Assembly (NCBI GenBank): GCA_964620265.1
Contig: CAZUGY010000002.1
Coordinates: 13,504 to 77,503 of the forward strand
Origin: an uncultured Alcaligenaceae bacterium
Lineage (GTDB): Bacteria > Pseudomonadota > Gammaproteobacteria > Burkholderiales > Casimicrobiaceae
Direction: 5' to 3'
DNA: 64,000 bases
A model generated the notes under the pieces. It was not told where the DNA came from and did not search any database. It saw nothing but the letters and a program-made list of their open reading frames with translations. The translations under genes and the position numbers were made by a program. Numbering within the stretch: the stretch's first letter is position 1; every line of letters begins with the position of its first letter. This document shows positions 625-16,702 of the stretch, one piece after another.

Positions 625-3600
625 ATGTTCACGCACTTCTTCATCGACCGGCCGATCCTGTCGTCGGTCATCTCGATCCTGTTCGTGCTCGCGGGCCTCG
701 TGGCGATGTCGGTCGCGCCCATCGAGCAGTATCCGGAGCTGGCACCGCCGTCCGTGGCGATCTCGGCCTCCTATCCCGGCGCCACCGCCGAGGTGATCGC
801 GAACCAGGTGGCCGCGCCCATCGAGGCGCAGATCAACGGGGTGGACAACCTCCTCTACTTCAGCTCGACGAGCTCGTCGTCGGGAAGCGTATCGATCCAG
901 GCGGTGTTCGCGCCGGGCAGCGATCCCGACATCAACCAGGTCAACGTGCAGAACCGCGTGAACCAGGCGCTGTCCCAGCTCCCGCAGGTGGTCACGCAGC
1001 AGGGCGTGACGGTCGAGAAGGTGTCGTCGGCCATCATGATGGTGCTGTCGATCTACTCCAACGACGACCGCTACACGTCGACCTACGTCGACAACTACAC
1101 CAACCTCTACGTCCTCGACGAGCTGAAGCGCGTGCCCGGGGCGAACCGCGCCTCCGTGCTCGGCATGCCCGACATCGCGATGCGCGTGTGGCTGCAGCCC
1201 GACCGCATGGCGCAGCTCGGCATCACGATCCGCGAAGTGTCCGACGCGCTGCAGAGCCAGAACCAGACGTTCGGCATCGGCCAGATCGGCGGCCAGCCCG
1301 CCGTGCCCGGCACGCAGCAGACGTTCGTGATCACGGCGCAGGGCCTGCTCACCCGACCGGAGGAATTCGAGGACGTGATCATCCGCGCCGACAAGGCGGG
1401 GGCGGCCACCGTGCGGCTGCGCGACATCGGCCGCGTGGAGCTCGACAAGCGCGACTACTCGGTGGTGAGCCGCATGAACGGCAAGATCTCCACCACCATC
1501 GCGATCTACCAGCAGCCGGGCGCCAATGCGGTGGCCACCGCCAAGGCCGTGCGCGCGCGCCTGGACGAGCTGCGCAAGTCCTTCCCCACCGGGCTCGACT
1601 ACCGCATCGCGCTCGACACGAGCCTCTTCACGCTGAACTCGATCGAGAAGGTGGTGCACACCTTCTTCGAGGCCGTCGTGCTCGTCGTGCTCGTGGTGTT
1701 CGTGTTCCTGCAGTCGCTGCGCGCCACGATCATCCCGATCCTCGCGGTGCCGGTGTCGATCATCGGCACGTTCGTGGGGATGCACCTGCTCGACTTCTCG
1801 ATCAACATGCTGACGCTCTTCGGCATGATCCTGGCCATCGGCCTCGTGGTGGACGACGCGATCGTGGTGGTCGAGGGTGTGGAGGCCAACATGGCGGAGA
1901 GGCACATCGGGCCGCTCGAGGCCGCCAAGCTCACGATGACGCAAATCGCGAGCGCGCTCATCTCGATCGTGCTGGTGCTCGTGGCGGTGTTCCTGCCGGT
2001 GGCCTTCCTGGGCGGGGTGACCGGCAAGCTCTACCAGCAGTTCGCGGTGACGATCGCGATCTCGATGGTGATTTCCGGGATCATGGCGCTCACGCTTTCG
2101 CCCGCGCTCGCGGCGATCATCCTCAAAGCGCAGCACGGCCAGAAGAACCGCTTCTTCCGCGCCTTCGAGCGCGGGTTCGAGAAGGTCCGCGACGGCTACC
2201 TGGGCATCATCGCGCGCACGCTGCGCGGCTGGCCGCTCGCGCTCATCGCCTTCGCCTTCATCCTCGCCGGCATCTGGGTCATGTTCCGCACGCTGCCGTC
2301 GAGCTTCGTGCCGGAGGAGGACCAGGGCTACTTCTTCACGGCGATCGTGGCGCCGGACACGGCGAGCCTCGAGGTCACCACGGCCATCACGCGGCGCGTG
2401 CAGGAGATCGTGTCGGCCGATCCGGCGGTGCAGGACGTGGCGTCGGTGGCGGGCTACAGCCTCCTCGACGGGCAGCTCGCCAACAACGGCGGGATCCTCT
2501 TCGCGTCGCTCAAGCCCTTCGAGCAGCGCACCGACGCGTCGATGCTCTCCTTTGCCGTGCTGCCGCGGATCAACGCCAAGCTGATGGAGATCCGGGACGC
2601 CTTCACCATCGCGATCAATCCGCCGTCGATCCCGGGCATGGGGTCCGTGGGCGGCTTCGAGTTCTACCTGCAAAGCCGCGGCAACCTCGATGCGCGCGCG
2701 CTGGGTGACGCGGTGAACGTGCTGATCGCCAAGGCCCGCGAGCGGCCCGAGCTGCAGGGCGTGTCGACCACCTATCGTCCGGCGACGCAGCAGCTCTTCG
2801 TGGACCTCGACCGCAGCAAGGCCGAGGTGCTGGGCGTGACGGTGTCGGAAGCGTTCGCCACGATGCAGGCGTTCTTCGGCTCGCAGGTGGTGGGCCAGTT
2901 CTCGCAGTTCTCGCGCGTGTGGTGGGTGATCCTGCAGGCCGATGCGAGCTACCGCATGAAGCCGTCGGACTTCGACAAGATCTTCGTGCGCTCGAGAAGC
3001 GGCGCCAACGTGCCGCTGTCGGCCCTCATCACCACGAAGTATGTCGCCTCGCCCAAGCTCGTGACGCGCTTCAACGGCTTCACGTCGGTCAAGATCACGG
3101 GCTCGCAGGCGCCGGGCTACAGCTCGGGCCAGGCGCTCGTCGCGATGGAGGAGATCGCACGCGAGCTGCCGGGCGATTTTTCCTACGCCTGGGCGGGACA
3201 GGCGCTGCAGGAGAAGCAATCGGGCAGCACGTCGAGCTCCGCCTTCATCTTCGGCCTGATCCTCGTGTTCCTGCTGCTCGCCGCGCAGTTCGAGAAGTGG
3301 ACGCTGCCGATCGCGGTCGTGCTCACGATCCCGATCGCGGTGCTGGGCGCGCTGCTGCTCACCTGGGCCGTGGGGCTCGAGAACGACGTGTATTTCCAGG
3401 TGGGGCTGGTGACGCTCGTGGGCCTGTCGGCCAAGAACGCGATCCTCATCTGCGAGGTGGCCATCGAGCACGTGCGCGAGGGCATGCCGCCGCGCGAGGC
3501 GGCGCTCGCCGCCGCCAGGGCGCGCCTGCGCGCGATCGTGATGACCTCGCTCGCCTTCGGCTTCGGCTGCATCCCGCTGGCCATCGCCACCGGCGCCGGT

Positions 3601-3810
3601 GCCAACAGCCTGCGCGCGATCGGCACCGGCGTGATCGGCGGGATACTCGCGTCGATGCTGGTGGCGGTGATCTTCGCGCCGCTCTTCTTCTTCCTGCTGG
3701 AATCGATGTCGCAGCGCTTCACGCGCCGGAAGGATGGCGGGCCGGACGCGCGCGACGGCGCCGTGCCGGCGGGGGACGAGGGAACCGCGCCGTCGTCGGG
3801 AGCGCACTGA
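625..3810 (+). CDS. HAE1-family RND efflux permease (AcrB/MexB-like)
   Basis: 1061 aa. Starts MFTHFFIDRPILSSVIS and carries the proton-relay motifs GLVVDDAIVVVE, GLSAKNAIL and RLRAIVMTSLAF. Confidence 0.96.
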   Translation: MFTHFFIDRPILSSVISILFVLAGLVAMSVAPIEQYPELAPPSVAISASYPGATAEVIANQVAAPIEAQINGVDNLLYFSSTSSSSGSVSIQAVFAPGSDPDINQVNVQNRVNQALSQLPQVVTQQGVTVEKVSSAIMMVLSIYSNDDRYTSTYVDNYTNLYVLDELKRVPGANRASVLGMPDIAMRVWLQPDRMAQLGITIREVSDALQSQNQTFGIGQIGGQPAVPGTQQTFVITAQGLLTRPEEFEDVIIRADKAGAATVRLRDIGRVELDKRDYSVVSRMNGKISTTIAIYQQPGANAVATAKAVRARLDELRKSFPTGLDYRIALDTSLFTLNSIEKVVHTFFEAVVLVVLVVFVFLQSLRATIIPILAVPVSIIGTFVGMHLLDFSINMLTLFGMILAIGLVVDDAIVVVEGVEANMAERHIGPLEAAKLTMTQIASALISIVLVLVAVFLPVAFLGGVTGKLYQQFAVTIAISMVISGIMALTLSPALAAIILKAQHGQKNRFFRAFERGFEKVRDGYLGIIARTLRGWPLALIAFAFILAGIWVMFRTLPSSFVPEEDQGYFFTAIVAPDTASLEVTTAITRRVQEIVSADPAVQDVASVAGYSLLDGQLANNGGILFASLKPFEQRTDASMLSFAVLPRINAKLMEIRDAFTIAINPPSIPGMGSVGGFEFYLQSRGNLDARALGDAVNVLIAKARERPELQGVSTTYRPATQQLFVDLDRSKAEVLGVTVSEAFATMQAFFGSQVVGQFSQFSRVWWVILQADASYRMKPSDFDKIFVRSRSGANVPLSALITTKYVASPKLVTRFNGFTSVKITGSQAPGYSSGQALVAMEEIARELPGDFSYAWAGQALQEKQSGSTSSSAFIFGLILVFLLLAAQFEKWTLPIAVVLTIPIAVLGALLLTWAVGLENDVYFQVGLVTLVGLSAKNAILICEVAIEHVREGMPPREAALAAARARLRAIVMTSLAFGFGCIPLAIATGAGANSLRAIGTGVIGGILASMLVAVIFAPLFFFLLESMSQRFTRRKDGGPDARDGAVPAGDEGTAPSSGAH

Positions 3811-3811
3811 C

Positions 3812-5329
3812 ATGGCCGCGCTCCCTTCGCGCACGAAACCTCCCCGCAGCCGGCGTGCGCGCCTGCGCGACGCGGCTCGCCTCGCCGCGTCGTGCGCGGC
3901 GCTCGCGCTCGCCGCCTGCACCCTGGGCCCGGATTACGTCCAGCCCGTGGTGGAGACGCCGCCCGCGTGGCGCGTGACCTACGAAACGGCCGCCGGCGCG
4001 GCCAACACGCGCTGGTGGGAGCAGTTCGACGACCCGGTGCTCACCGGCCTCGTCGAGAGCGCCTTGCGCGAGAACCTCGACCTCGTGACCGCAGCGGCGC
4101 GCGTGGACGCCTTCATCGGGCAATTGCAGACCACGCGCGCGCAGCTCTACCCGAAAGCGAGCTACAACCTCGATACGAGTCGCAATCGCATGTCGCTCGC
4201 GGGCACGCCGCCGTCGCCTGAAGGCACCGACCCCTACTATTCGATCTACAGCGGCGCGCTCGGCGCGTCGTGGCAGCTCGACCTTTTCGGCCGCGTGCGG
4301 CGGCAATCGGAGTCGGCGCAGGCACGCGTCTTTGCCACCGAGCAGGGGCGACGCGGCGTGGTGCTGTCGGTGGTCACCAGCATGGCGGCGAGCTACATCG
4401 CGCTGCGCGGGTTCGACAAGCAACTCGAGGTCTCGCAGCGAACTGCCGAGAATGCGGCGAACACGCTGCGCATCTTCGGCCTTCGCCACCAGGGAGGCGT
4501 GGTCTCGCGCGTCGAGCTCGAGCAGGCGCAGTCGCAGTACCAGCAGGCGCTCGCGGCGATCCCGGCCGTCGAGCAGCGCATCGCCGCGCAGGAGAATCTC
4601 ATCGCCACGCTGCAGGGCCGCAGCCCCTATCCGATTCCGCGCGGGAAGACGATCGACCAGCTCACGCTGCCGGCGATACCCGCCGACCTGCCGGCGTCGC
4701 TCCTCACGCGCCGTCCCGACATCCTGCAAGCCGAGCAGAACATGATCGCGGCCAACGCCGAAATCGGCGCGGCGGAGGCGCTCTACTACCCGCAGTTCAA
4801 CCTCACCGGGTCGCTCGGATCGGTCAGTGGCGCGCTCACGAACTTCCTGAGCGGTCCGGCCGCGACCTGGGCGCTCGCCGCGGCCGTTGCGGGGCCGCTG
4901 TTCACCGCCGGCTCCGTCGCGGGCCAGGTGGCCAGTGCCACGGCCACCACCGAGGCCACGGTCGCCGTCTACCGGCAAACGATCCTCATCGCCTTCCGCG
5001 AGACGAACGACGCGCTCGCGGGCACCGTCAAGAAACGCGCCGAGGCCGCCGCGCAGGCCAGGCGCGTGAAAGCGCTGAGCGAGCTGGCGCGCCTGTCGCG
5101 CGTGCGCTTCAACAGTGGCTACGGCGGCTACCTCGAGGTCATGTATGCGGAGAACGAGCTCTTCGCCGCCGAGCTCGCCGCCGTGCAGTCGTATTCCGAA
5201 GCCTACACGCAGCTCGTGGCGGTCTATCGCGCGATGGGCGGTGGCTGGATCGACCTCGCCGACGCCGGAACCGCCGCCGGCGGCGCCCCGCCGCTCGACG
5301 AGCGGGCGGCGAAGCAGCCCCTCTTCTAG
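3812..5329 (+). CDS. Outer-membrane efflux factor lipoprotein (OprM/NodT family)
   Basis: ATG at 3812 follows the permease stop. Lipobox LAAC-TLGPDY, SWQLDLFGR, LLTRRPDILQAE and YRAMGGGW are present. Confidence 0.94.
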   Translation: MAALPSRTKPPRSRRARLRDAARLAASCAALALAACTLGPDYVQPVVETPPAWRVTYETAAGAANTRWWEQFDDPVLTGLVESALRENLDLVTAAARVDAFIGQLQTTRAQLYPKASYNLDTSRNRMSLAGTPPSPEGTDPYYSIYSGALGASWQLDLFGRVRRQSESAQARVFATEQGRRGVVLSVVTSMAASYIALRGFDKQLEVSQRTAENAANTLRIFGLRHQGGVVSRVELEQAQSQYQQALAAIPAVEQRIAAQENLIATLQGRSPYPIPRGKTIDQLTLPAIPADLPASLLTRRPDILQAEQNMIAANAEIGAAEALYYPQFNLTGSLGSVSGALTNFLSGPAATWALAAAVAGPLFTAGSVAGQVASATATTEATVAVYRQTILIAFRETNDALAGTVKKRAEAAAQARRVKALSELARLSRVRFNSGYGGYLEVMYAENELFAAELAAVQSYSEAYTQLVAVYRAMGGGWIDLADAGTAAGGAPPLDERAAKQPLF

Positions 5330-6351
5330 CGCCCCGGGCGCGTCGGGCCCCTGGCGTTGCGTCCGGCACGCCGGGACGAAGGCGTCGCATCGTATTGCCG
5401 GCGGTACCAGTGGGAGAACCCGCTCGAGCCCGAGAAGCCGAGCAGCGTCGCGATCTCGGCGAGGCTGCGCCGGTCCTCGAGATAGCGTTCCGCGAGCTCG
5501 CGCCGCACGGCGTCGACGATGCCCGAGAACGTCGCGCCGTCCTTCGCGAGGCGGCGGTGGATCGTGCGCCGGTCCACCCCCAGGTGCTGCGCGGCGCGGT
5601 CGATCGTGCACGCGCCGGTGCCGAGCAGGGTCACGACGAGATCGCGCACCTGGGCCGCGATGTCCTCCTGCGCGCGCACGGCGCGCTGCCCGTCGAGCAT
5701 GCGCTGCGCGAGGCGCGCGAGCTCCGGGTCGGCGTGGGCATTGGGGCGCGCGAGATCCGCCAGCGCGCACACGATGCCGTTGAAGTCGTGGCCGAACTCG
5801 ACGTGACGCCCGAAGATGCGCTCGTGGATCGTGCGATCCGCGGGCGGATCGTGCGCGAAGCAGACGCGGCGCGGTCGCCAGTCGCTGCCGAGCAGGTTCT
5901 GCAGCGTGCGAAAGGCGACGCCGATCGCGAGCTCGGTCGCCTGGCGCACGGGGCCGCCGTGCCCGATTACCAGCAGCTCGCGCAGGACGAGCACGTCGGC
6001 GGCTTCCTCGATGGTGAGGTGCAGCGACTCGTTCAGGCGCCACCCGTGCTCGACGAAGGCCTGCAGCGCGAGCCGCGGCGTGGGCTGCTCGCGGATCAGG
6101 AGGCCGAGCGGCCCGAGGCTCGACAGCCGCCGCGTCTCCGCCATGAGCAGGCCAAAGGCGTCGACGCCGCTCCTGCCCGCCGACGCCTCGAGCAGCGCGC
6201 GGACGGCATCGATGGGAACGACCACCTCCGGGTCCTCGAGGCAGCGCGCGGGAAGGGCGAACTCGCGCAGCATGCACGCCGGATCGAGGCCGCAGGCGCG
6301 CGCCACGTCCGCGTAATTGGTGAGGCTCGCGCTCCTGATGAGGCCGTTCAC
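5326..6351 (-). CDS. AraC-family transcriptional regulator (OruR/VirS-like N-terminal ligand domain)
   Basis: LIRSASLTNY N-terminus and a C-terminal double HTH (AAQHLGVDRRTIHRRL; IATLLGFSGSSGFSHWYRR). The GTG at 6351 has a GGAGG RBS; the ORF track start at 6360 is an alternative. Confidence 0.9.
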   Translation of the reverse strand: MNGLIRSASLTNYADVARACGLDPACMLREFALPARCLEDPEVVVPIDAVRALLEASAGRSGVDAFGLLMAETRRLSSLGPLGLLIREQPTPRLALQAFVEHGWRLNESLHLTIEEAADVLVLRELLVIGHGGPVRQATELAIGVAFRTLQNLLGSDWRPRRVCFAHDPPADRTIHERIFGRHVEFGHDFNGIVCALADLARPNAHADPELARLAQRMLDGQRAVRAQEDIAAQVRDLVVTLLGTGACTIDRAAQHLGVDRRTIHRRLAKDGATFSGIVDAVRRELAERYLEDRRSLAEIATLLGFSGSSGFSHWYRRQYDATPSSRRAGRNARGPTRPGR

Positions 6352-6368
6352 GCCGGACACCTCCCCGC

Positions 6369-6431
6369 GTCCCGAATGAGCAAGTTTACGTCACAGGGGA
6401 TCAACCACCAATGGAGGGTGGCGCCGACAAT
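6369..6431 (+). promoter_or_regulatory. AraC-type activated promoter P1: two GTC-N9-CAA direct repeats 21 bp apart, plus -10-like GACAAT
   Basis: GTCccgaatgagCAA at 6369-6383, GTCacaggggatCAA at 6390-6404, GACAAT at 6426-6431. The same geometry recurs at 11171-11233. Confidence 0.7.
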
Positions 6432-6479: not shown

Positions 6480-7805
6480 ATGGCTCTCCACGCCGCCGCC
6501 TTCGACCTCGCACCCGACCGTCCCGCGCCGCGCCGGTACGCATGGACGGTGTTCGGCGTGCTGTTCGCGCTCATGGTGGTCGACTACGTCGACCGCCAGG
6601 TCATCGTGTCGATGTTCTCGCACCTCAAGGCGGAGTGGGACCTCTCCGACGGCCAGCTCGGCGCGCTCGTGTCGATCGTCTCCGTGACCGTCGCCGCCGG
6701 CGCCGTGCCGCTCTCGCTGCTCGCGGATCGCTGGAGCCGCGTCAAGAGCATCTTCCTGATGGCGGTGGTGTGGAGCCTCGCCACGATCTCGTGTGCATTC
6801 GCGGGCAGCTACATGCAGCTCTTCGCCGCGCGCGGGCTGGTGGGGCTGGGCGAGGCGGCCTACGGGACCGTGGGCGCCGCGCTGATCGCGACGCTGTTTC
6901 CCGTACGCATGCGCAGCTCCGTGCTCGGGGCGTTCTTCCTGGCCGGCATCCTGGGCTCGGTGCTGGGCGTGGTCCTGGGCGGCCTCATCGCGGAGCGCTG
7001 GAGCTGGCAGGCCGGCTTCGGCGTGGTCGGCGTGCCGGGCCTCCTCCTCGCCTTCGTGTTCCTGTTCGTCGTGCGCGATTACAAGACGGTCCCGCTGCCG
7101 CGGGCGAGCGGCAGCGGCAGCCGGGCCGCGCTCGCCACGCGCGCCATCGTCGCGGCACTGCTGAAGCCGCGCACGGCGCTCGTCGCGTCGCTCGGCGCGG
7201 GCTTCCAGCTCCTCACGCTGTCGATGACCTATGCATGGCTGCCGACGTACTTCAACCGCTACTACGGCCTCGCGCCGGACGTGGCGGGATTGAAGGCGGG
7301 CGTCGTCGTCCTCGTCGGCGGGATCGGCGCCTTCGTGTGGGGCGTGGTGGCGGACCGCCTGACGCCGCGCATCGCCTGCGCCCGCCTGTACGTGCCCGCG
7401 GTGGGTGCCGTCCTGACGGCGATCCTGATGGGCAGCGCCTTCGGGCTGCTGCCGCCCGGCAATGCGCAATTCGCGCTGATCGTCGCCGGCGGCCTCATGA
7501 TGGCCGTGAACGTCGGCCCCATCAGCGCGGCCGTGATCGACGTCGTGCATCCGTCGGTGCGGGCGACGGCCGCCTCGATCCTTTCGCTGATCCAGAACCT
7601 GTTCGGCCTCGCCGGCGGGCCGCTGCTCACCGGCATGCTGTCGGACCGCTACGGGCTGCAGTTCGCGCTCACCTGCGTGCCCGCCTTCTGCCTGCTGGCC
7701 GCGATCCTGTTCGCGCTCGCCGCACGGACCTACGTCTTCGACCTCCGCCAGGCGCAGCAAGTGGATGCCGCCGAGCGCGGCGCCGGCGCGCTGCAACCCG
7801 CGTGA
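6480..7805 (+). CDS. MFS transporter (spinster-like / aromatic acid:H+ symporter-like)
   Basis: 12 hydrophobic segments. Motifs VDYVDRQVI, LADRWSRVK, GLGEAAY and LSDRYG. Confidence 0.92.
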   Translation: MALHAAAFDLAPDRPAPRRYAWTVFGVLFALMVVDYVDRQVIVSMFSHLKAEWDLSDGQLGALVSIVSVTVAAGAVPLSLLADRWSRVKSIFLMAVVWSLATISCAFAGSYMQLFAARGLVGLGEAAYGTVGAALIATLFPVRMRSSVLGAFFLAGILGSVLGVVLGGLIAERWSWQAGFGVVGVPGLLLAFVFLFVVRDYKTVPLPRASGSGSRAALATRAIVAALLKPRTALVASLGAGFQLLTLSMTYAWLPTYFNRYYGLAPDVAGLKAGVVVLVGGIGAFVWGVVADRLTPRIACARLYVPAVGAVLTAILMGSAFGLLPPGNAQFALIVAGGLMMAVNVGPISAAVIDVVHPSVRATAASILSLIQNLFGLAGGPLLTGMLSDRYGLQFALTCVPAFCLLAAILFALAARTYVFDLRQAQQVDAAERGAGALQPA

Positions 7806-8221
7806 TGAAGAAGAAGATGAACACCCCCGCCGTCCACGATCCGCTGCCGACGCGCACGCAGCGCCTCGCGAGCGGGAACTGGAATCCCGACTGGGAGCCG
7901 TTCGCGCAGATCGATCCGGCGTGGACCGAGAAAGCCATCGCCTTCGCGATCGCGCCCGCGGTTGCCGGCGCGCTCGACAAGAAGACGATCGAGCTCATCG
8001 GCATCGCGCTCGACGCCTCGGTCACGCACCTGTACGCCCCCGGCGTGCGCCGCCACATCCAGCGCGCGCTGAAGGCAGGGGCCACGCGCGAGGAAATCAC
8101 CGCCGTGCTGCAACTGTGCTGCATGCAGGGCCTGCACAGCATGTGCCTCGCCGCGCCGATCCTCCTCGACGAGCTCGGCGAGGCGCCATCGACCATCACC
8201 ACCGAGAGGACCCGACCATGA
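7805..8221 (+). CDS. Carboxymuconolactone decarboxylase / AhpD-like family protein (no CxxC)
   Basis: The ATG overlaps the MFS stop (alternative ATG at 7817). LDKKTIELIGIALDA...HIQRALKAGATREEITAVL fits the CMD family pattern. Confidence 0.8.
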   Translation: MKKKMNTPAVHDPLPTRTQRLASGNWNPDWEPFAQIDPAWTEKAIAFAIAPAVAGALDKKTIELIGIALDASVTHLYAPGVRRHIQRALKAGATREEITAVLQLCCMQGLHSMCLAAPILLDELGEAPSTITTERTRP

Positions 8222-9276
8222 ACTTCCTAGACGGATCGCTGTTCCCCGAGAACCAGGACAAGCTCGTCATCACCGCCGCGCCGTACGGCCCCGAGTGGGT
8301 GCCGGCCGACTTTCCGGAGGACATCCCGGTCACGATGGAAGCGCAGATCCAGAAGGCGGTGGACTGCTACAACGCGGGGGCTGCCGTGCTGCACCTGCAC
8401 GTGCGCGAGCTCGACGGCAAGGGCAGCAAGCGGCTGTCGAAGTTCAACGAGCTGATCGCCGGCGTGCGCCGCGCCGTGCCGGACATGGTCATCCAGGTCG
8501 GCGGCTCGATCTCCTTCGCACCGGAGACCGAAGGCTCCGCCGCCAAGTGGCTGTCCGACGACACGCGCCACATGCTGGCCGAGCTCGACCCGCGGCCGGA
8601 CCAGGTCACGGTGACCGTGAACACCACGCAGATGAACGTCGTGGAGCAGATGGAGATCGACGACATCGCCGGCACGTCGATGGCGGAGCCTGCGAACTAC
8701 CAGGCCTACCGCGAGATGATCGTCCCCTCCGCCCCGAGCTGGGTCGAGGAGCACGTGCGCCGCCTGAGCGCCGCCGGCATCCAGAGCGCCTTCCAGTTCT
8801 ACAACATCAACAGCTACGAGACCGTGGAGCGCCTGATCCGCCGCGGCGTCTACAAGGGCCCGCTGGTGATGAACTGGGTGGCGATCGGCGGCGGGATGGA
8901 CCAGCCGACGATCTACAGCCTGTCCAATTTCCTGCGCGCCATTCCCGACGGCTCGATGCTGACCGTGGAGAGCAGCATGCGCAATGTGCTGCCGATCAAC
9001 ATGATGGGCATCGCCATGGGCCTGCACGTGCGCTGCGGCATCGAGGACAACCTCTGGAACCAGTCGCGCACGGCCAGGATGACCACCGTGCAGCAGATCG
9101 AGCAGCTGGTGCGCATCGCCGGCGAGTTCGGCCGTGACGTGGCCAACGGCAGGGAGGCGCGCGAGATCTGCAAGATCGGCGTGTTCTACGATACAGTGGA
9201 ACAGACGCTGGCCGCCAATGGCTTCGCCCCGAACGCCAGGGGCCGCCAGCAGGGTTTCCTGCGCAAGGTCGCGTGA
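8218..9276 (+). CDS. Beta-keto acid cleavage enzyme (3-keto-5-aminohexanoate cleavage / DUF849 family)
   Basis: ITAAPYG start, metal-binding LHLHVR, IQVGGS and HVRCGIEDNLW. ATGA overlap with the upstream gene. Confidence 0.88.
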   Translation: MNFLDGSLFPENQDKLVITAAPYGPEWVPADFPEDIPVTMEAQIQKAVDCYNAGAAVLHLHVRELDGKGSKRLSKFNELIAGVRRAVPDMVIQVGGSISFAPETEGSAAKWLSDDTRHMLAELDPRPDQVTVTVNTTQMNVVEQMEIDDIAGTSMAEPANYQAYREMIVPSAPSWVEEHVRRLSAAGIQSAFQFYNINSYETVERLIRRGVYKGPLVMNWVAIGGGMDQPTIYSLSNFLRAIPDGSMLTVESSMRNVLPINMMGIAMGLHVRCGIEDNLWNQSRTARMTTVQQIEQLVRIAGEFGRDVANGREAREICKIGVFYDTVEQTLAANGFAPNARGRQQGFLRKVA

Positions 9277-9284
9277 GGATGACC

Positions 9285-10277
9285 ATGGCACAAGCGATCC
9301 GCATGTACGCGACGGGCGGGCCCGAAGTGCTGCGCCTCGAGGAGGTCGCGGTGGGCGATCCCGGGCCCGGCCAGGCGCGCATCCGGCACGTCGCCGTCGG
9401 CCTCAATTTCGCCGACACCTACTTCCGCAGCGGCCTCTATCCGGTCCCGTTGCCGAACGGCATCGGTGTGGAAGCCGCGGGCATCGTCGAGAGCGTCGGC
9501 GACGGCGTGACCAACGTCGCGCCGGGCGATCGCGTGACGTACACGGGATTCGTCAACACGCTCGGCGCGTACAGCACCAAGCGCATCATCGCGGCGGCGC
9601 CGCTCATCAAGCTGCCCCCCGCCATCGCGTGCGAGACCGCCGCCGCGATGACCATGCGCGGGCTCACGTCGGCGTACCTGATGCGGCGCATCTGGCCGCT
9701 CCACGCGGGCGACACGATCCTGCTCCACGCGGCCGCGGGCGGCGTCGGCCTCATCGTCTCGCAGTGGGCGAAGCTGCTCGGGCTCGGCGTCATCGGCACG
9801 GTGTCGACGCCAGCCAAGGCCGATATCGCCCTCGCGCACGGATGCGACCACGTGATCCTCTACGGCCGGGAGGATGTCGCGGCGCGCGTGCGCGAGATCA
9901 CCGGCGGCGCCGGCGTGGCGGTGGTCTACGACAGCGTGGGCAAGGACACGTTCGCGGGCTCGCTCGCGTCGCTGCGCCGGCGCGGGCTGCTCGTGTGCGT
10001 CGGCACGGCGTCGGGTCCCATCCCGCCGATCGACGCGATGCAGCTGGCGCTGAAGGGATCGCTGTTCGTCACCCGCCCGGCGCTGGCCGACTACATCGCC
10101 GATCCGGCGGAGAAGGACGCGCTCGCCGCGGAGCTCTTCGACCACGTGGCGGCAGGACGCATCAGGATCGAGATCAACCAGCGCTACCGCCTCGAGGATG
10201 CGGCGCAGGCGCATCGCGACCTCGAGTCGCGCCGGACCATGGGCTCGTCCATCTTCGAGGTGACCTCACATGACTAA
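9285..10277 (+). CDS. NADPH:quinone oxidoreductase (Zn-independent MDR family, Qor-like)
   Basis: AIRMYATGGPEVL, GLNFADTYFRSGLY, HAAAGGVGL, VYDSVGKDTF and LESRRTMGS. A GAGGA RBS precedes the ATG at 9285. Confidence 0.92.
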   Translation: MAQAIRMYATGGPEVLRLEEVAVGDPGPGQARIRHVAVGLNFADTYFRSGLYPVPLPNGIGVEAAGIVESVGDGVTNVAPGDRVTYTGFVNTLGAYSTKRIIAAAPLIKLPPAIACETAAAMTMRGLTSAYLMRRIWPLHAGDTILLHAAAGGVGLIVSQWAKLLGLGVIGTVSTPAKADIALAHGCDHVILYGREDVAARVREITGGAGVAVVYDSVGKDTFAGSLASLRRRGLLVCVGTASGPIPPIDAMQLALKGSLFVTRPALADYIADPAEKDALAAELFDHVAAGRIRIEINQRYRLEDAAQAHRDLESRRTMGSSIFEVTSHD

Positions 10278-11166
10278 CGTCATCGACAACACGGCGCCCG
10301 CCGTGACCCCCACGCAGCTTCGCGTCGAGCCGCTGACCTGCGCCATCGGCGCGGAAGTCCTCGGCGTGAGTCTCGGCGACGCCGCGCGCGACGACGGGCT
10401 GTTCGCGCAGATTCGCGCCCTGCTCCTGCGGCACAAGGTGCTGTTCCTGCGCAACCAGGACATCACGCGCGCCGAGCACGTCGCGTTCGCGCGCAGGTTC
10501 GGCGACCTCGAGGATCACCCGGTGGCCGGCAGCGATCCCGACCACCCCGGCCTCGTGCGCATCTACAAGTCACCCGACCAGCCCAACGACCGCTACGAGA
10601 ACGCGTGGCATACCGACGCGACGTGGCGCGAGAAGCCGCCGTTCGGCTGCGTGCTGCGCTGTGTGGAGTGCCCGCCGGTGGGCGGCGACACCATGTGGGC
10701 GAACATGGCCCTTGCCTACGAGCGCCTGCCCGATCACGTGAAGGCACAGATCGCCGGCCTGCGCGCGCGCCACAGCATCGAGGCGACGTTCGGCGCCGCC
10801 ATGCCGATCGAGAGGCGCCTGGCGCTCAAGGCGCAGTTCCCGGACGCCGAGCACCCGGTCGTGCGCACGCACCCGGAAACCGGCGAGAAGGTCCTGTTCG
10901 TCAACGCGTTCACGACGCACTTCACGAACTTCCACACCCCGGAGCGCGTGCGCTACGGCCAGGACTACAGCCCCGGCGCCGCCCAGCTCCTCGAGTACCT
11001 CGTCAGCCAGGCGCTCATCCCCGAGTACCAGGTCCGCTGGCGCTGGGAGCCCAACGCGGTCGCCATCTGGGACAACCGCTGCACGCAGCATTACGCAGTC
11101 ATGGACTACCCGCCGTGTCACCGGAAGATGGAGCGCGCCGGGATCATGGGGGACACGCCTTTCTAG
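10270..11166 (+). CDS. TauD/TfdA-family Fe(II)/2-oxoglutarate dioxygenase
   Basis: WHTD (HxD), GGDTMW, EHPVVRTHPETG and IWDNRCTQHYA (distal His) followed by a conserved Arg. Confidence 0.93.
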   Translation: MTNVIDNTAPAVTPTQLRVEPLTCAIGAEVLGVSLGDAARDDGLFAQIRALLLRHKVLFLRNQDITRAEHVAFARRFGDLEDHPVAGSDPDHPGLVRIYKSPDQPNDRYENAWHTDATWREKPPFGCVLRCVECPPVGGDTMWANMALAYERLPDHVKAQIAGLRARHSIEATFGAAMPIERRLALKAQFPDAEHPVVRTHPETGEKVLFVNAFTTHFTNFHTPERVRYGQDYSPGAAQLLEYLVSQALIPEYQVRWRWEPNAVAIWDNRCTQHYAVMDYPPCHRKMERAGIMGDTPF

Positions 11167-11170
11167 CGCC

Positions 11171-11233
11171 GTCCCCGAAAGACAAGTTCGTGACACTCGC
11201 GATCAAGCATCGCGCGAGGCCGGCGCGGACAAT
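11171..11233 (+). promoter_or_regulatory. AraC-type activated promoter P2, same architecture as P1
   Basis: GTCcccgaaagaCAA at 11171-11185, GACactcgcgatCAA at 11192-11206 (21 bp period), and GACAAT at 11228-11233, 24 nt after the start of the second CAA, exactly as in P1. Confidence 0.68.
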
Positions 11234-11363
11234 GTGATTCACGGGTACGGCCGGCAACACGGCCGGCCCGCGAACAACGACGGCGCTTTCCGGGCGCCGC
11301 GGCAGCACCGAAGACCCGCACACAAGGGTAAATGAACTCCGAAGGGTTCAGGGAGGGCTACGC

Positions 11364-12404
11364 ATGTACCGTCACATCCTGGTTCCGATCGACGACTCGC
11401 CGCTCGCGATAGACACCGTGCAGCAGGCGGTCACGTTCGCGCGCTCGATCGGCGCGAAGGTGACATTCTTCCATGCCCAGCACGACTACGCCGCCTCGAG
11501 CCTCGGGGCGCTCGACCGGGTCATGTCGCCGGGCGCCTTCAACGAAGAGGTCGCCGGCGAGGCACGCGCGCTGCTCGCGAAGGCCGAGGTCGTCGCGCGC
11601 ACCGCGGGCGTCCCGCACGACGCGCTCGCGATGACCTGCGACCGTCCGCACGAGGCGATCCTCGGCGCCGCCGAGGCGCACGGCTGCGACCTCATCTTCA
11701 TGGCGTCGCACGGGCGCCGCGGCCTCACGGGCCTCGTGCTGGGCTCGCAGACGAGCAAGGTGCTGCAGGCGGCCTCCATCCCGGTGCTGGTCGCCACGGT
11801 GGAGAGCAACCGCGCGCCCTCGTCGGCCGACGCCGCACTCATGGTGGTGCGCGACGAGCACCGCTCGCTCGCGGCGGTCATCCACGGGCTCGAGTTCGTC
11901 GTCCGCGAGGCACGCGAGCGCGGCACGCCGGCGTCGGTGCCGCTCCTGCGCGCGATCGTGCGCTATGTCCATGACTTTCCGGAGACGCTGCATCACCCCA
12001 AGGAGGACACCTACCTCTTCCCGCTCCTGCGCGCGCGCACGACCGAGTACGACGCCACGCTCGACGCGCTCGCCCGGCAGCACGAGACGGGGACCGCGCT
12101 CACGCAGGCACTGTCGCGCGCGGTGGATGCCTACGCCGCGGATCCCGCGCAGGGCCTGCCCGTCCTCGCCGACGCGGCCGCGGCGTTCGCCACCGCGCAG
12201 ATGGAGCACATGCTCCTCGAGACGAAGGTGATCATCCCCGCGGCGCGCAGGCACCTCACCGCCGAGGACTGGACGCTCGTCGCGGACGCGTTCGGCCAGA
12301 ACGGCGATCCGCGCTTCTCCATCGATGCGGACGAGGAATACCGCCACCTCTTCGCACGCATCCTGAATCTCGCGCCGGCCGGCGTCGTCGGCAGCGCGCA
12401 ATGA
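11364..12404 (+). CDS. Universal stress protein fused to a hemerythrin-like (HHE) domain
   Basis: N-terminal USP (YRHILVPIDDS; DLIFMASHGRRGLTGLVLGSQTSKVL). C-terminal EHRSL, HHPKED, QHETG and EHMLLE metal-ligand pattern. Confidence 0.85.
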   Translation: MYRHILVPIDDSPLAIDTVQQAVTFARSIGAKVTFFHAQHDYAASSLGALDRVMSPGAFNEEVAGEARALLAKAEVVARTAGVPHDALAMTCDRPHEAILGAAEAHGCDLIFMASHGRRGLTGLVLGSQTSKVLQAASIPVLVATVESNRAPSSADAALMVVRDEHRSLAAVIHGLEFVVREARERGTPASVPLLRAIVRYVHDFPETLHHPKEDTYLFPLLRARTTEYDATLDALARQHETGTALTQALSRAVDAYAADPAQGLPVLADAAAAFATAQMEHMLLETKVIIPAARRHLTAEDWTLVADAFGQNGDPRFSIDADEEYRHLFARILNLAPAGVVGSAQ

Positions 12405-12430
12405 ACATCATTCCACAGGGGAGACCTGAC

Positions 12431-14275
12431 ATGCACCGTTCCTTCACGTTCCGCCGCACGGCGGCCGCCGCCGCACTTGCCGCGCTGTTCGCAGCGCCGG
12501 CGCTCGCCTTCGAGATCGACACCGGCAATCCCGACCTCGAGCTGCGCTGGGACAACACCTTCCGCTACAACCTGGGCGGTCGCGTGCAGGACCAGAACCC
12601 GGCGATCCTGGGCGCCGTGAACAACGACGACGGCGACCGCAACTTCGACAAGGGCTCGCTCGTCACCAACCGCCTCGACATCCTGTCCGAGTTCGACTTC
12701 GTGTGGCAGAAGAGCTACGGTGCGCGCGTGAGCGCGGCGCTGTGGTACGACGACGCCTACCGCAGCCTCGACAACACCTTCACGGCGACCGCCAACACGC
12801 TGGTCAACGGCCTGCCCGCGGCCGGCCAGCTGTCGCCGTACAGCAAGCGCTTCCTCGAGGGCCCGTCGGCCGAGTGGCTCGACGCCTTCGGCTTCGCGAA
12901 CTTCGAGGCACTCGGCATGCAATGGAACGTCAAGGCCGGCCAGCACACCGTGTACTGGGGCGACAGCCTCCTGCTCGGCGGCGCCGTCCATGGCGTGTCG
13001 TATGCGCAGAACTCGATCGACCTCATGAAAGGCTTCGGCACGCCGGGCGCGGAAGCGAAGGAGCTGTTCCGTCCCAAGGGCGGCATCACGCTGCAGACGC
13101 AGGCGACCAAGGACCTGTCGATCGCCGGCCAGTGGTTCTACAACTGGCAGGCCGTGCGCGCGCCCGAGTCGGGCAGCTACCTGACCGCGCACGACGCACT
13201 GCAGTTCGGCGGCGACTCGCTGGTCTTCGGCCCGAATCCGTTCGCCGCGGCGATCCCCGGCGCGCCGGCGTTCACCCGCCTGTGGAACCAGCAGGCGATC
13301 CCCGCGTCGCGCTACAGCGCGAGCCTGGGCGACTGGGGCATCTCCGCGCGCTGGAGCCCGGACTGGCTCGACGGCACGATGGGCTTCTATTTCCGCAACG
13401 CGACCGACATCCTGCCGCAGACGGTCGTCATCCCCGGCTTCGCGGCGCTGCCGGCGGCCACCTGCCAGGCCATCGGCGGCATCGTGGTGGCGCCCACCGC
13501 GTGCATCATCAATCCCAAGGCGACGAGCGTCGCCGACCTCACGCAGAGGGGCAAGGTCGGCGAATACCGGACGGCATACGGCGACAACATCCACATCTTC
13601 GGCGTGACGCTCTCCAAGAACATCGGCGGCGTCAGCGTGGGCGCGGAGCTCTCGTACCGCCAGAACATGCCGCTGCTGTCGGACCCGGTGCAGGCGCTGC
13701 CGACGCCGCTCGTCAATGCCGCCGCGGGCCAGATCTCGATCAACAACATTCCGGAGAACGGCACGCCCGGCGCGCTCGGCGACACCTTCCACGGCGTCCT
13801 CAACGGCTTCTGGATCATGTCCAAGACGCCGCTCTTCGACAGCGCGACGTTCGCGGCGGAAGGCACGTGGATGCGCTGGAGCCGGGTGACGCAGAACGAG
13901 GCGGTATTCAAGGGCCGCGACGGCTACACTGCGATCGACAAGCCGTCGCGCGACTTCTTCGGCATCGCCTTCAACGTCACGCCGACCTGGTTCCAGGTGT
14001 GGCCGGGCGTGGACCTGCTGGCGCCGATGTCGTATTCGCGCGGCGTGTCCGGCAATGCCGCCGTCTTCCTCGGGGGCAACGAAGCTGCCGGCAACTATGC
14101 CGTGGGCCTCGCCGCCGACATCTACTCGAAGTACCGCATCGACCTCAAGTACACCGGTTACTTCGGCGACTACTCGACCAATGAGGCGACGGGCGCGGCG
14201 ACCACGTTCAACGGCGTGTTCGGCTCGCTGTCCGACCGCGGCTGGGTCTCTCTCACGTTCAAGACCACGTTCTAA
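12431..14275 (+). CDS. DUF1302-family outer-membrane beta-barrel protein
   Basis: Signal peptide, WDNTFRYN, NNDDGDRNF, KAGQHTVYWGDSL and a terminal DRGWVSLTFKTTF beta-signal. Confidence 0.85.
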   Translation: MHRSFTFRRTAAAAALAALFAAPALAFEIDTGNPDLELRWDNTFRYNLGGRVQDQNPAILGAVNNDDGDRNFDKGSLVTNRLDILSEFDFVWQKSYGARVSAALWYDDAYRSLDNTFTATANTLVNGLPAAGQLSPYSKRFLEGPSAEWLDAFGFANFEALGMQWNVKAGQHTVYWGDSLLLGGAVHGVSYAQNSIDLMKGFGTPGAEAKELFRPKGGITLQTQATKDLSIAGQWFYNWQAVRAPESGSYLTAHDALQFGGDSLVFGPNPFAAAIPGAPAFTRLWNQQAIPASRYSASLGDWGISARWSPDWLDGTMGFYFRNATDILPQTVVIPGFAALPAATCQAIGGIVVAPTACIINPKATSVADLTQRGKVGEYRTAYGDNIHIFGVTLSKNIGGVSVGAELSYRQNMPLLSDPVQALPTPLVNAAAGQISINNIPENGTPGALGDTFHGVLNGFWIMSKTPLFDSATFAAEGTWMRWSRVTQNEAVFKGRDGYTAIDKPSRDFFGIAFNVTPTWFQVWPGVDLLAPMSYSRGVSGNAAVFLGGNEAAGNYAVGLAADIYSKYRIDLKYTGYFGDYSTNEATGAATTFNGVFGSLSDRGWVSLTFKTTF

Positions 14276-14287
14276 GGAGTACCGCAC

Positions 14288-15649
14288 ATGTTCGACAAGA
14301 CTCTCGTTGCCCTGGCCTTCGCGTCGCTCGCGGGCACCGCCTTCGCCGCGGTCTCCGCCGAGGAGGCGAAGCAGCTCGGCACCACGCTCACCGCCGTCGG
14401 TGCCGAGAAGGCCGGCAACAAGGAAGGCACCATTCCCGCCTACACCGGCGGGCTGAAGGAGATCCCCGCGTCCTACAAGCAGGGCAGCGGCATCCGTCCG
14501 TCGCCCTTCGAGGCGGAGAAGCCCCGGCTGGTCATCGATGCCAAGAACGCGGCGCAGCACGCGGACAAGCTGACGGAGGGCACCAAGGAGCTCCTGAAGC
14601 GCTACCCCGCCACGATGCGCCTCGACGTGTATCCCACGCAGCGCGTGGTCGCGTTGCCCGCGAAGGTGCTCGCCAACACCGCGAAGAACGCGGTCGGCAC
14701 CAAGAGCGTGAACGACGGCCTCGGCGTGGAGAACATGCTCCCGGGCATCCCGTTCCCCATTCCGAAGACGGGCAACGAGGCGATGTGGAACCACCTCGTG
14801 CGCTATCCGGGTGTGGCCTACGTGCAGAAGTACGAGAACTGGAACGTCGACTCGGCCGGCGTGCCGACGCTCGCCACCGCGGGCACGCTCACCAACGAGT
14901 TCCCGCTGTTCGATCCGAAGCGCCCCGAAGGCGCCGCGAAGGAGAGCGATCCCTTCTGGAAGATCAAGGTGCTCTACACGGGACCCGCGCGCCGGGCCGG
15001 CGAGGCGCTGATGGTCGTCGACTCGGTCAATCCGATCGTGCAGGGCCGGCGGGCGTGGCAATACCTCCCGGGACAGCGCCGCGTGAAGCTCGCGCCGGAC
15101 CTGTCCTACGACACGCCGAACGCAGGCACGGCGGGCACCTCGACCTATTCGGACGCGTTCGTGTTCAACGGCGCGATGGACCGCTTCGACTGGAAGCTCG
15201 TGGGCAAGAAGGAGATGTACGTCCCGTACAACGGCTACAAGCTCATGTACGCGAAGGACATCAAGCCCGCGCTCACGCCGAATCACGTCAATCCCGAGTT
15301 CATGCGCTGGGAGCTGCATCGCGTCTGGGTCGTGGAAGCGACGCTCAAGCCGGGCAAGCGCGACCTGTACAGCAAGCGCGTGTATTACCTCGACGAGGAC
15401 AGCTGGGCCGCGCTCGCCGCCGACCAGTACGACAACAAGGGGCAGCTCTACCGCGCCACGATCGTCAACCCGACGTGGAGCTACGACGCGAGTGCCGTGA
15501 ACATCGACAACTACACGTTCTACGACTTTTCCTCGGGCTCGTACGCCGTCGTCGGCGCCTCCGGAAGGTCCGATGGCATCCGCTACGTCGATCCGCTGCC
15601 CGAGCTGCAGTGGGCGTCGGAGTCGCTGGCGGGGTCGGGGATCCGTTGA
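14288..15649 (+). CDS. DUF1329-family periplasmic protein (LolA-like lipid-shuttle fold)
   Basis: Signal peptide, LTAVGAEKAGN, IPAYTGG, PFPIPKTGNEAMWNH, AWQYLPGQRRVK, RWELHRVWVVEATLKPGKR and YLDEDSW. Confidence 0.88.
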   Translation: MFDKTLVALAFASLAGTAFAAVSAEEAKQLGTTLTAVGAEKAGNKEGTIPAYTGGLKEIPASYKQGSGIRPSPFEAEKPRLVIDAKNAAQHADKLTEGTKELLKRYPATMRLDVYPTQRVVALPAKVLANTAKNAVGTKSVNDGLGVENMLPGIPFPIPKTGNEAMWNHLVRYPGVAYVQKYENWNVDSAGVPTLATAGTLTNEFPLFDPKRPEGAAKESDPFWKIKVLYTGPARRAGEALMVVDSVNPIVQGRRAWQYLPGQRRVKLAPDLSYDTPNAGTAGTSTYSDAFVFNGAMDRFDWKLVGKKEMYVPYNGYKLMYAKDIKPALTPNHVNPEFMRWELHRVWVVEATLKPGKRDLYSKRVYYLDEDSWAALAADQYDNKGQLYRATIVNPTWSYDASAVNIDNYTFYDFSSGSYAVVGASGRSDGIRYVDPLPELQWASESLAGSGIR

Positions 15650-16686
15650 AGCTTCTGCGCACCTTCGTCCTCTGCGCCGGCGCGGTCGCGCTGCCCGCCG
15701 GGGCAGCCGGCTTCGTCGACGTGCTGGCGCAGCCGGCCGTGATGTCGCCGCTGGCGAGCCGGTCGCTCATGCAGGCGGTGGCACGCGCAGGGACGAAGCT
15801 CGTCGCCGTCGGCCAGCGCGGGCACGTGCTCGTGTCGGCCGACGACGGCAAGACCTGGAAGCAGTCGCCGGTGCCCGTGAGCTCCGATCTCACGGCCGTG
15901 CATTTCGTCGACGACCGCAGGGGATGGGCCGTCGGCCACGACGGCGTGATCCTCGCTTCCGGGGACGGCGGTGCATCGTGGACGCTGCAGCTCGACGGCG
16001 CGCGCGCGAACCAGGCGCTGGTCGACGACCTCGCGCGCAAGCCCGAGGCGCAGGCGCTGCTCGCGGAAGCGAACCGCAATCTCGAGCAGGGTCCGGACAA
16101 GCCCTTCCTCGACGTGTGGTTCGCGGACGAGAAGGTCGGCTTCGCCGTCGGCGCCTACAACCTCGCATTCCGCACGGAAGACGGCGGGAAGACCTGGCAG
16201 CCGTGGTTCGATCGCATCGACAATCCCAAGCTGCTGAACCTGTATGCGATCCGCCCTGCGGCCGGCGAGCTGTTCATCGTCGGCGAGGCGGGCCTGGTGC
16301 TGAAGCTCGATGCGCCGGCGCAGCGCTTCCGCGCGGTCGAGCTGCCGTACCAGGGCACGCTCCTCGGCATCACCGGCAGCGCGGACGCGGTGATCGTGTT
16401 CGGCCTGCGCGGCCAGGCGTGGCGCAGCGAGGACGCCGGGAAGACATGGAGCAAGGTCGACGCGGGATTGCCGGCGACGATCGTCGCCGGAACGCCGGTG
16501 GCCGGCCAGGGATTCGCGCTCGCCGACGCGAGCGGACGCGTCAGCGTCTCGCGCGACGGCGGCCGCAACTTCCGGGCGGCGTCCCTTCCGCCCTCGATGA
16601 TGCTTGCCGGCATGGCCGACGCCGGCGAGGGCCGCCTCGCCCTCGCGGGCGCCCGCGGCGTGACGGTCGTCGCGCTGCCGCGCTGA
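15646..16686 (+). CDS. YCF48/BNR-repeat beta-propeller protein
   Basis: TTG start overlaps the upstream stop. Repeated Asp-box motifs (SADDGKTW, SGDGGASW, TEDGGKTW, SEDAGKTW, SRDGGRNF). Confidence 0.85.
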   Translation: MKLLRTFVLCAGAVALPAGAAGFVDVLAQPAVMSPLASRSLMQAVARAGTKLVAVGQRGHVLVSADDGKTWKQSPVPVSSDLTAVHFVDDRRGWAVGHDGVILASGDGGASWTLQLDGARANQALVDDLARKPEAQALLAEANRNLEQGPDKPFLDVWFADEKVGFAVGAYNLAFRTEDGGKTWQPWFDRIDNPKLLNLYAIRPAAGELFIVGEAGLVLKLDAPAQRFRAVELPYQGTLLGITGSADAVIVFGLRGQAWRSEDAGKTWSKVDAGLPATIVAGTPVAGQGFALADASGRVSVSRDGGRNFRAASLPPSMMLAGMADAGEGRLALAGARGVTVVALPR

Positions 16687-16702
16687 CCACCGCGGAACTG
16701 CC

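Follow-up and report, generated by a model that had tools for sequence, protein, structure and literature searches.

A coupled five-gene operon of an uncultured Alcaligenaceae bacterium as a local variant of a widespread TauD-like and BKACE-fold gene module

What does an operon do that couples a gene from the family of beta-keto acid cleavage enzymes (BKACE) to genes for a TauD-family dioxygenase, a QorA-type reductase, a small CMD-domain protein and an MFS transporter, and does it stand alone? The question is raised by a 64,000-nucleotide stretch of DNA (the window, positions 13,504 to 77,503 of contig CAZUGY010000002.1 in assembly GCA_964620265.1) from an uncultured Alcaligenaceae bacterium. 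Positions 6480-11166 of the window had been described, from the letters alone, as an orphan catabolic operon with intact catalytic motifs that takes a lipophilic acid or ester through a beta-keto acid to C-C cleavage. The operon is a genus-specific gene order of a known, uncharacterised synteny class, and the observation itself is not new. The core of that class is a gene for a TauD-family dioxygenase directly followed by the gene for a 352-residue BKACE-fold zinc protein; the module built on that pair is widespread, and the window operon is its local variant. Judged by its residues, the BKACE-like protein most likely does not perform the acetyl-CoA-dependent Claisen reaction for which its family is named.

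The operon and its relatives

The region has a G+C content of about 70% and many spurious open reading frames (ORFs); Pfam and NCBIfam searches pick out one consistent gene set. Five genes follow one another on the forward strand: an MFS transporter (6480-7805; Pfam MFS_1, 170.8 bits), a small CMD/AhpD-fold protein (7805-8221; Pfam CMD, 36.3 bits against a cut-off of 23), the BKACE-fold zinc TIM-barrel protein of 352 residues (8218-9276; Pfam BKACE, PF05853, 212.8 bits against a cut-off of 24.8), a QorA-type, zeta-crystallin-like NADPH-dependent medium-chain reductase, here called Qor (9279-10277; Pfam ADH_N and ADH_zinc_N), and a TauD/TfdA-family Fe(II)/2-oxoglutarate dioxygenase of 298 residues (10270-11166; Pfam TauD, 227.4 bits). 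An AraC-family regulator (5326-6360, reverse strand; Pfam Arabinose_bd, PF12625, with HTH_18) is transcribed divergently from them. The five genes are translationally coupled, their stop and start codons overlapping or nearly touching. Read directly from the sequence, the MFS/CMD junction is TGATG (a 1-nt overlap) and the CMD/BKACE junction ATGA (4 nt); the stop codon of the BKACE gene, at 9276, precedes Qor ATG codons at 9279 and 9285, which leaves 2-8 nt between the two genes, and the Qor and TauD genes share 8 nt. The original prediction had placed and named all five genes correctly, each with Pfam support, and its claim of a coupled operon is borne out by these junctions and by the recurrence of the gene order in the genus.

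That order, AraC<>MFS-CMD-BKACE-Qor-TauD, recurs in the genus: at least 8 other genomes have it, with proteins 59-94% identical and usually with genes for a Usp-hemerythrin protein, DUF1302 and DUF1329 coming next, and it is also present in 4 further metagenome-assembled genomes (MAGs). A word-based search of 5.8 billion proteins with the BKACE-like protein as query returned thousands of matches. The top 120, which come from Ramlibacter, Variovorax, Caldimonas and a large number of metagenomes, are all 352-residue proteins of 84-93% identity. When one genome was scanned for each species, relatives turned up in at least 592 species, belonging to the Beta-, Gamma- and Alphaproteobacteria.

Partners were counted by mapping the window proteins on to the best 80 loci of the species scan (76-94% identity of the BKACE-like protein), which include Variovorax, Paraburkholderia, Cupriavidus, Hydrogenophaga, Polaromonas, Acidovorax and Pseudomonas, and further Microbulbifer, Dyella, Thermomonas and alphaproteobacterial MAGs. 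TauD is the most constant companion, at 66 of the 80 loci, and at 51 it lies directly upstream of the BKACE-like gene on the same strand. Qor is present at 58, AraC at 51, a YdeN-type serine hydrolase at 42 (directly downstream of the BKACE-like gene at 21), MFS at 39, an acyl-CoA ligase at 24, CMD at 10 and Usp-hemerythrin at 6. The commonest order across these loci is TauD-BKACE-SerH-Qor-MFS-ACS (SerH, serine hydrolase; ACS, acyl-CoA synthetase). An annotated operon of Ramlibacter sp. XY19 reads MalT-LuxR > TauD-BKACE-SerH-ADH-MFS-ACS-PSE-TctC, with MMPL and BNR genes adjoining it in convergent orientation; the BKACE-like orthologues of this strain and of Variovorax are 85-87% identical to the window protein. 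Unbiased clustering of all ORFs in the related loci yielded no further recurrent enzyme; the recurrent non-enzymes were TctC binding proteins, a porin, a MalT-type LuxR regulator, a YeiH/PSE membrane protein (PSE, 'putative sulfate export') and a DSBA-like protein, the last of these encoded by a DSBA-like/kappa-GST-like gene at 12 of the 80 loci. An envelope system (DUF1302, DUF1329, BNR and MMPL), the YeiH/PSE exporter and the DSBA-like protein join the module in some genomes.

Several particulars of these relatives deserve mention. Five loci (L069, L079, L089, L096 and L097) carry two or three TauD and BKACE-like pairs within 17 kb; such multiple pairs in a genome suggest a paralogue family that acts on related substrates. 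In the complete genome of Variovorax ureilyticus P51 (L034:12096-13900) the ligase gene of the module appears to be split over two frames and could be a frameshift or a pseudogene. One metagenomic protein, on an ENA contig (P0001, 542 residues, 93% identical to the BKACE-like protein of the window), is called as a CMD-BKACE fusion (PF02627 and PF05853); the call may come from read-through or mistaken gene prediction at the ATGA overlap, or the fusion may be genuine.

A gene set of this kind is already on record. In the NetSyn preprint (10.1101/2023.02.15.528638), where the 725 BKACE sequences from Bastard et al. 2014 were analysed anew, Louvain cluster 25 assembles 47 members of ASMC group G7, 7 of G3 and 2 of G2, mostly from Betaproteobacteria. 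Their neighbours include an NADPH alcohol dehydrogenase/quinone oxidoreductase, TauD, MFS, a DUF1234 serine hydrolase, AraC, LuxR, an acyl-CoA synthetase and a thioredoxin-like protein, and the cluster is labelled 'Pathway to discover' (10.1101/2023.02.15.528638). The window operon has the TauD, Qor, MFS and AraC genes of that list, with a ligase and a PF06821 hydrolase farther downstream; its sister loci have the full set, including the thioredoxin/DSBA-like partner, and they too come mostly from Betaproteobacteria. The window differs in its order (MFS-CMD-BKACE-Qor-TauD) and its extra CMD gene, in the displacement of the ligase and hydrolase to the end of a DUF1302-MMPL operon, and in having no LuxR, DSBA-like or PSE gene. 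By gene content, the module corresponds to the cluster 25 gene set. The term orphan must therefore be given up for a module that is found in at least 592 species and is already catalogued, but the accompanying statement that no pathway combining these enzymes has been characterised holds: the literature searches yielded the NetSyn preprint only, and mentions of DUF849 in PMC6206043 and PMC12393044 proved unrelated.

The BKACE-like protein and its active site

The BKACE-like protein (residues counted from Met1 at 8218) belongs to its family by fold. Against the NCBIfam equivalogs of characterised BKACEs (Kce and the 3,5-dioxohexanoate and 3-oxoadipate enzymes) its best score is 137.5 bits, with a cut-off of 382. 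An AlphaFold2 model (pLDDT 80) gives Foldseek TMq values of 0.64-0.71 to PdKce, Kce and cis-epoxysuccinate hydrolase. Set against the canonical enzymes, Kce of Cloacimonas (2Y7D-G) and PdKce/BKACE15 (8RIO, 8RIP, 9HNF), the model has a TIM barrel with TMq 0.69-0.70 and TMt 0.78-0.85 (0.69 and 0.78, respectively, for 8RIP). The modelled structure confirms the predicted fold and offers no functional lead.

HMMER alignments to Kce (2Y7D) and PdKce (8RIO, 8RIP), with which the protein has 25-27% identity, show that the His-x-His and Glu zinc ligands and the adjacent Asp are retained: H59, H61, E276 and D277 correspond to H46, H48, E230 and Asp231 of Kce. Conservation was examined over 211 near-full-length relatives, built from genome loci (matches among representative sequences being mostly fragments). 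H61 and D277 are unchanged in all 211; H59 has one exception, as does E276.

The glutamate of the E-x-Y motif, in contrast, is replaced. Where the canonical enzymes read VEVYE and FECYD, the window protein reads FQFYN, and its Gln193 aligns with E143 of Kce (after correction for a six-residue tag), which is E171 of PdKce. The latter has been proposed as the catalytic base; the E171L substitution abolishes activity and E171D retains 5% of it (PMC11961710). Among the 211 relatives position 193 is Gln in 208, Met in 2, Ala in 1 and Glu in none. Cleavage of a beta-keto acid is unlikely because the general base has been replaced in this way. The claim of intact catalytic motifs consequently survives for the TauD-like protein and for the zinc ligands of the BKACE-like protein, and fails at the catalytic base of the latter.

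Two further residues of the canonical enzymes, a Tyr and an Arg, are kept in the window protein but vary across the subfamily. The Arg position (R255) is Leu in 27 of the 211 relatives, and in two syntenic orthologues of the same genus (L018 and L020, 71-72% identical) the Tyr has become Ala and the Arg Leu. The subfamily also has an insertion of about 45 residues relative to Kce and PdKce, in and around which lie the subfamily-invariant segments GGSISFAP (95-102) and T116-R117-H118. Taken together, the residues mark the protein as a conserved, selected variant rather than a decayed copy. A canonical BKACE with its Glu in place (RFEIECYD) is encoded on another contig (C99) of the same genome, immediately downstream of a TetR-like regulator gene (L105, at about 1.2-2.2 kb of the locus). 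The genus also holds paralogues of 49-60% identity (L021, L022 and L023) in which the base position holds Met or Val and the Tyr position Gly or Ala; their settings are AraC alone, AraC with MFS, or the vicinity of tandem CMD genes.

In the published classification a G7 protein is one with at least one catalytic residue missing, and none of the group's members transformed a keto acid in the published screen (10.1101/2023.02.15.528638); elsewhere G7 is listed as 'not BKACE' (PMC4922564). On the strength of the missing Glu and the matching genomic context, the BKACE-like protein probably belongs to G7. That the BKACE fold accommodates non-Claisen chemistry is evident from cis-epoxysuccinate hydrolase (5ZMU, 5ZMY), BsfD of flavophos biosynthesis (9ZSC) and ObcA (4NNC); at 13-21% identity, however, these three give no sign of a common substrate or reaction.

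Partner proteins and the linked downstream operon

The TauD-like protein has a complete set of cofactor residues: its Fe ligands H114, D116 and H274 and its 2-oxoglutarate residues T141 and R285 align with H99, D101, H255, T126 and R266 of TauD. It also retains His83 and Arg289 at what are the anion-binding positions in the TauD structures. Three positions are changed, Y73 to A86, N95 to R108 and S158 to T173, which in TauD are the contacts to the taurine amine. The protein does not reach the NCBIfam equivalog for taurine dioxygenase (NF007104; 253 bits against a cut-off of 313). It scores about equally against TauD, PlaO1 and Rv3406; for RdpA and AtsK the values are a little lower. The closest solved structure, PDB 5VN6 (E=1.4e-170, near-identical over residues 16-298), is a structural-genomics entry to which no substrate has been assigned.

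The Qor translation carries the nucleotide motif AAAGGVG and scores 344.7 bits against the QorA subfamily NF008024, just under the cut-off of 348. The CMD protein matches each half of the tandem-CMD protein PDB 2Q0T (E=2.5e-46), its closest structure, which has no known function; the CxxC motif of AhpD-type peroxidases is absent from its translation. The best NCBIfam for the transporter is TIGR00893, below cut-off, and the protein is most like the anion:cation symporter-like subfamilies. The AraC regulator matches QhpR, GliR and CypR-like NCBIfam families, all below cut-off. Directly upstream of its gene, at 625-5329, lies a gene pair for an RND pump and an outer-membrane factor. A homologue of the latter is also found upstream of AraC at a second locus (L024), and there is weak similarity (25-27%) at two Microbulbifer loci (L056, L062).

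The ligase and hydrolase that accompany the module in other species lie 8-10 kb downstream in the window. A second operon on the forward strand (11364-19180, by Pfam) encodes the Usp-hemerythrin, DUF1302, DUF1329, BNR/YCF48-like and MMPL/RND proteins, and is closed by an acyl-CoA ligase of the PRK06187 subfamily (19221-20870, forward strand; Pfam AMP-binding; NCBIfam NF004837, 642 bits against a cut-off of 476) and a YdeN/RBBP9-type serine hydrolase (20867-21415, forward strand; PF06821, formerly DUF1234; Pfam Ser_hydrolase, 153 bits). In most other species' genomes these two genes sit inside the TauD-BKACE operon. The DUF1302-MMPL operon, for its part, recurs beside the TauD-BKACE module in other arrangements.

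A regulatory connection between the two operons is suggested by their upstream regions. The region between AraC and MFS contains an operator-like element, P1 (GTCCCGAATGAGCAAGTTTACGTCAC; 6369-6394, forward strand), that is conserved across an alignment of 12 related genomes and is a probable binding site of AraC. A second copy, P2 (GTCCCCGAAAGACAAGTTCGTGACAC; 11171-11196, forward strand), lies ahead of the Usp-hemerythrin gene, and the P1 and P2 regions also have a common downstream block, GGCGCnGACAATG. The P2 copy holds indels: a fixed-spacing pattern search recovered P1 only, and P2 was found by local alignment of the two intergenic regions and compared with the relatives' P1 consensus. In five relatives (L013, L014, L016, L025 and L077) the TauD stop and the Usp-hemerythrin start are 35-66 nt apart, which implies one long transcript, whereas in the window (11167-11363) and its closest relatives the spacing is 200-355 nt and carries the second operator copy. 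The two operons thus appear to be joined into one in some genomes and, in others, to be separate, with the operator duplicated. The duplicated operator and the in-operon position of the ligase and hydrolase elsewhere give independent support to the co-regulation of these two genes that the original prediction had assumed.

For Pseudomonas putida, RB-TnSeq data connect growth on Tween 20 and butyl stearate with the DUF1302/DUF1329 and BNR/RND genes of the envelope system, and growth on C5/C6 acids with the neighbouring PP_0763 ligase (10.1101/2020.07.04.188060). The gene sets PP_0763-PP_0767 and PP_2018/2019 of P. putida KT2440, and AmeABCD of Castellaniella defragrans, resemble the downstream operon in combining DUF1302, DUF1329, BNR and RND/MMPL genes with a CoA ligase, but no TauD or BKACE-like genes are reported with them.

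Substrate and reaction

The substrate cannot be read from the sequence, a conclusion that the original prediction had also reached, but the sister operons provide some clues. In the commonest of them the ligase passes the NCBIfam equivalog for DmdB, 3-(methylthio)propionyl-CoA ligase, at 971 bits (cut-off 822). A YeiH/PSE 'putative sulfate export' gene (PF03601) lies inside the operon at 19 of the 80 loci, in three classes, positioned after the ligase or after the DSBA-like gene (L033, L037, L038, L056, L104:15642-16652 and others); the PSE gene of L056, the one locus scored, reaches 152 bits against TIGR00698, whose cut-off is 232.6. The module's regulators belong to the AraC or MalT-LuxR types and not to the sulfur-starvation type (CysB/Cbl/SsuR), and a sulfur-economy test found no depletion of Cys plus Met in the BKACE-like (5.4%) and TauD-like (4.4%) proteins. 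Combined, these clues weakly suggest a dissimilatory organosulfur, or otherwise anionic, substrate. (From the DmdB-type ligase and the TctC genes, a role in cleaving the thioether of 3,3'-thiodipropionate, which Variovorax paradoxus TBEA6 catabolises, was considered. That candidate was dropped: the TBEA6 proteomics paper names no 2-oxoglutarate dioxygenase, BKACE, Qor or serine hydrolase.)

The explanation that we favour, and to which we give somewhat better than even chances, is that the operon is an AraC-associated variant of the TauD and BKACE-fold module that catabolises an imported organic anion by way of non-Claisen zinc chemistry. The anion, which may be the acid or the head group of an amphiphilic ester that the envelope system next door handles, would be hydroxylated by the TauD-like enzyme at an sp3 carbon beside an anionic or leaving group; the enzyme retains the anion-binding His83 and Arg289 and has lost the taurine-amine contacts. 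Hydroxylation would lead to a carbonyl, possibly with release of sulfite or sulfate. The BKACE-fold zinc enzyme would then bind the resulting oxo-acid and carry out a step other than an acetyl-CoA Claisen reaction, for example decarboxylation, hydrolysis or retro-aldol cleavage; Qor would reduce an enone, aldehyde or quinone product with NADPH, and the ligase and hydrolase would process the acyl part.

A more specific version, to which we give a low probability, makes the module an undescribed dissimilatory route for anionic organosulfur compounds, in which the Gln-type BKACE fold would perform a new, CoA-independent reaction on an oxo-acid. Candidate substrates would be sulfonated or sulfated carboxylates, or the head groups of amphiphilic esters such as acyl-isethionate, N-acyl-taurine or alkyl-sulfate-like lipids. 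Uptake would be by the DUF1302/DUF1329/BNR/MMPL system with MFS or TctC, the serine hydrolase and CoA ligase would take the acyl part, and the TauD-like enzyme would turn the C-SO3 or C-OSO3 carbon into a carbonyl; the sister operons would export the sulfite or sulfate by means of PSE.

A number of points weigh against these readings. Every catalytic step of the module is inferred. In other members of the dioxygenase family, such as TfdA and RdpA, the equivalents of His83 and Arg289 bind carboxylates as well as sulfonates, so the retained pair cannot separate the substrate classes. Another residue, such as the invariant His118 of the subfamily-specific insertion, could replace the lost base of the BKACE-like protein and rescue Claisen chemistry, and 9 of the 56 members of cluster 25 are G2 or G3 rather than G7. 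At the window locus the organosulfur version is weakened further: by NCBIfam the window ligase is not of the DmdB type, and no PF03601/PSE gene is found in the window's own, 99.7%-complete genome, so that the sulfur-export clue does not apply there.

What of the route first proposed for the operon? It runs from hydroxylation by the TauD-like enzyme, through oxidation to a beta-keto acid, to true BKACE cleavage with acetyl-CoA, giving acetoacetate and an acyl-CoA from a lipophilic acid or ester. Its logic parallels carnitine catabolism, in which gamma-butyrobetaine is converted to carnitine, dehydrocarnitine and betainyl-CoA. The hydroxylase that makes carnitine from gamma-butyrobetaine (BBOX) belongs to the TauD Pfam family, and the sequence of hydroxylase, dehydrogenase and BKACE family member (carnitine dehydrogenase with the dehydrocarnitine BKACE) has the same logic. 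The couple of a dehydrogenase with a BKACE is established in that pathway (PMC9321204). The PF05853 fold with its zinc site and adjacent Asp intact, the Tyr and Arg of the window protein, and the CoA chemistry implied nearby by an acyl-CoA ligase in the module all speak for such a route. It is nevertheless unlikely. Its decisive enzyme has Gln193 at the position of the base, which is never Glu among the 211 relatives and whose counterpart E171L leaves PdKce inactive; members of G7 converted no keto acid when they were screened; the syntenic orthologues have lost the Tyr and Arg as well; and the genome keeps a canonical, Glu-bearing BKACE elsewhere. Neither does the rest of the operon match the carnitine pathway. 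The reductase is a QorA-type NADPH-dependent enzyme of the medium-chain family and not an obvious hydroxy-acid dehydrogenase, let alone a carnitine dehydrogenase of the 3-hydroxyacyl-CoA-dehydrogenase type, the 298-residue dioxygenase is of the TauD/AtsK-like form rather than BBOX, and the transporter looks to be of an anion rather than a betaine type.

The operon might alternatively serve stress resistance or the detoxification of quinones and other electrophiles, with Qor reducing quinones or enones, the CMD and Usp-hemerythrin proteins responding to oxidants, and the TauD-like and BKACE-like enzymes repairing or degrading adducts. A QorA-type reductase and a CMD/AhpD-fold protein are indeed present, the adjoining Usp-hemerythrin gene stands under the same operator, and the DSBA-like/kappa-GST-like gene occurs at a dozen of the sister loci. 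The two presumed responders are, however, infrequent partners, CMD being found at only 10 of the 80 loci and Usp-hemerythrin at 6, and the invariant TauD and BKACE-like core, with its uptake transporters and CoA ligase, points instead to the import and catabolism of a substrate. We regard this explanation as improbable.

As a sulfur-scavenging operon, the locus would use a TauD/AtsK-type enzyme, when sulfate is scarce, to free sulfite or sulfate from sulfonates or sulfate esters, and its remaining genes would be accessory. Scavenging is the role for which the TauD family is best known; TauD, Rv3406 and AtsK are the nearest characterised structures, and the anion-binding pair is kept. It is very improbable here. 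Regulation is by AraC or MalT-LuxR in place of CysB, Cbl or SsuR, the two core proteins show none of the depletion in Cys and Met already looked for, the putative sulfate/sulfite exporter of the sister operons fits dissimilation, and the CoA ligase, hydrolase and reductase are not needed for scavenging. Finally, a chance juxtaposition of genes with no common function is effectively refuted by the synteny data, that is, by the overlapping stop and start codons and by a partner set that recurs, in several gene orders, in three proteobacterial classes.

Few uncharacterised enzyme sets of soil Burkholderiales are as widespread or as well conserved as this module, its BKACE-like protein being 76-94% identical across three proteobacterial classes at the best 80 loci. 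As annotations of two of its enzymes, the family names 'taurine dioxygenase' and '3-keto-5-aminohexanoate cleavage protein' are almost certainly incorrect. Finding the substrate would allow thousands of database annotations to be corrected and would add a newly defined chemistry to the BKACE fold; what the DUF1302/DUF1329/BNR/MMPL envelope system carries might be explained as well.

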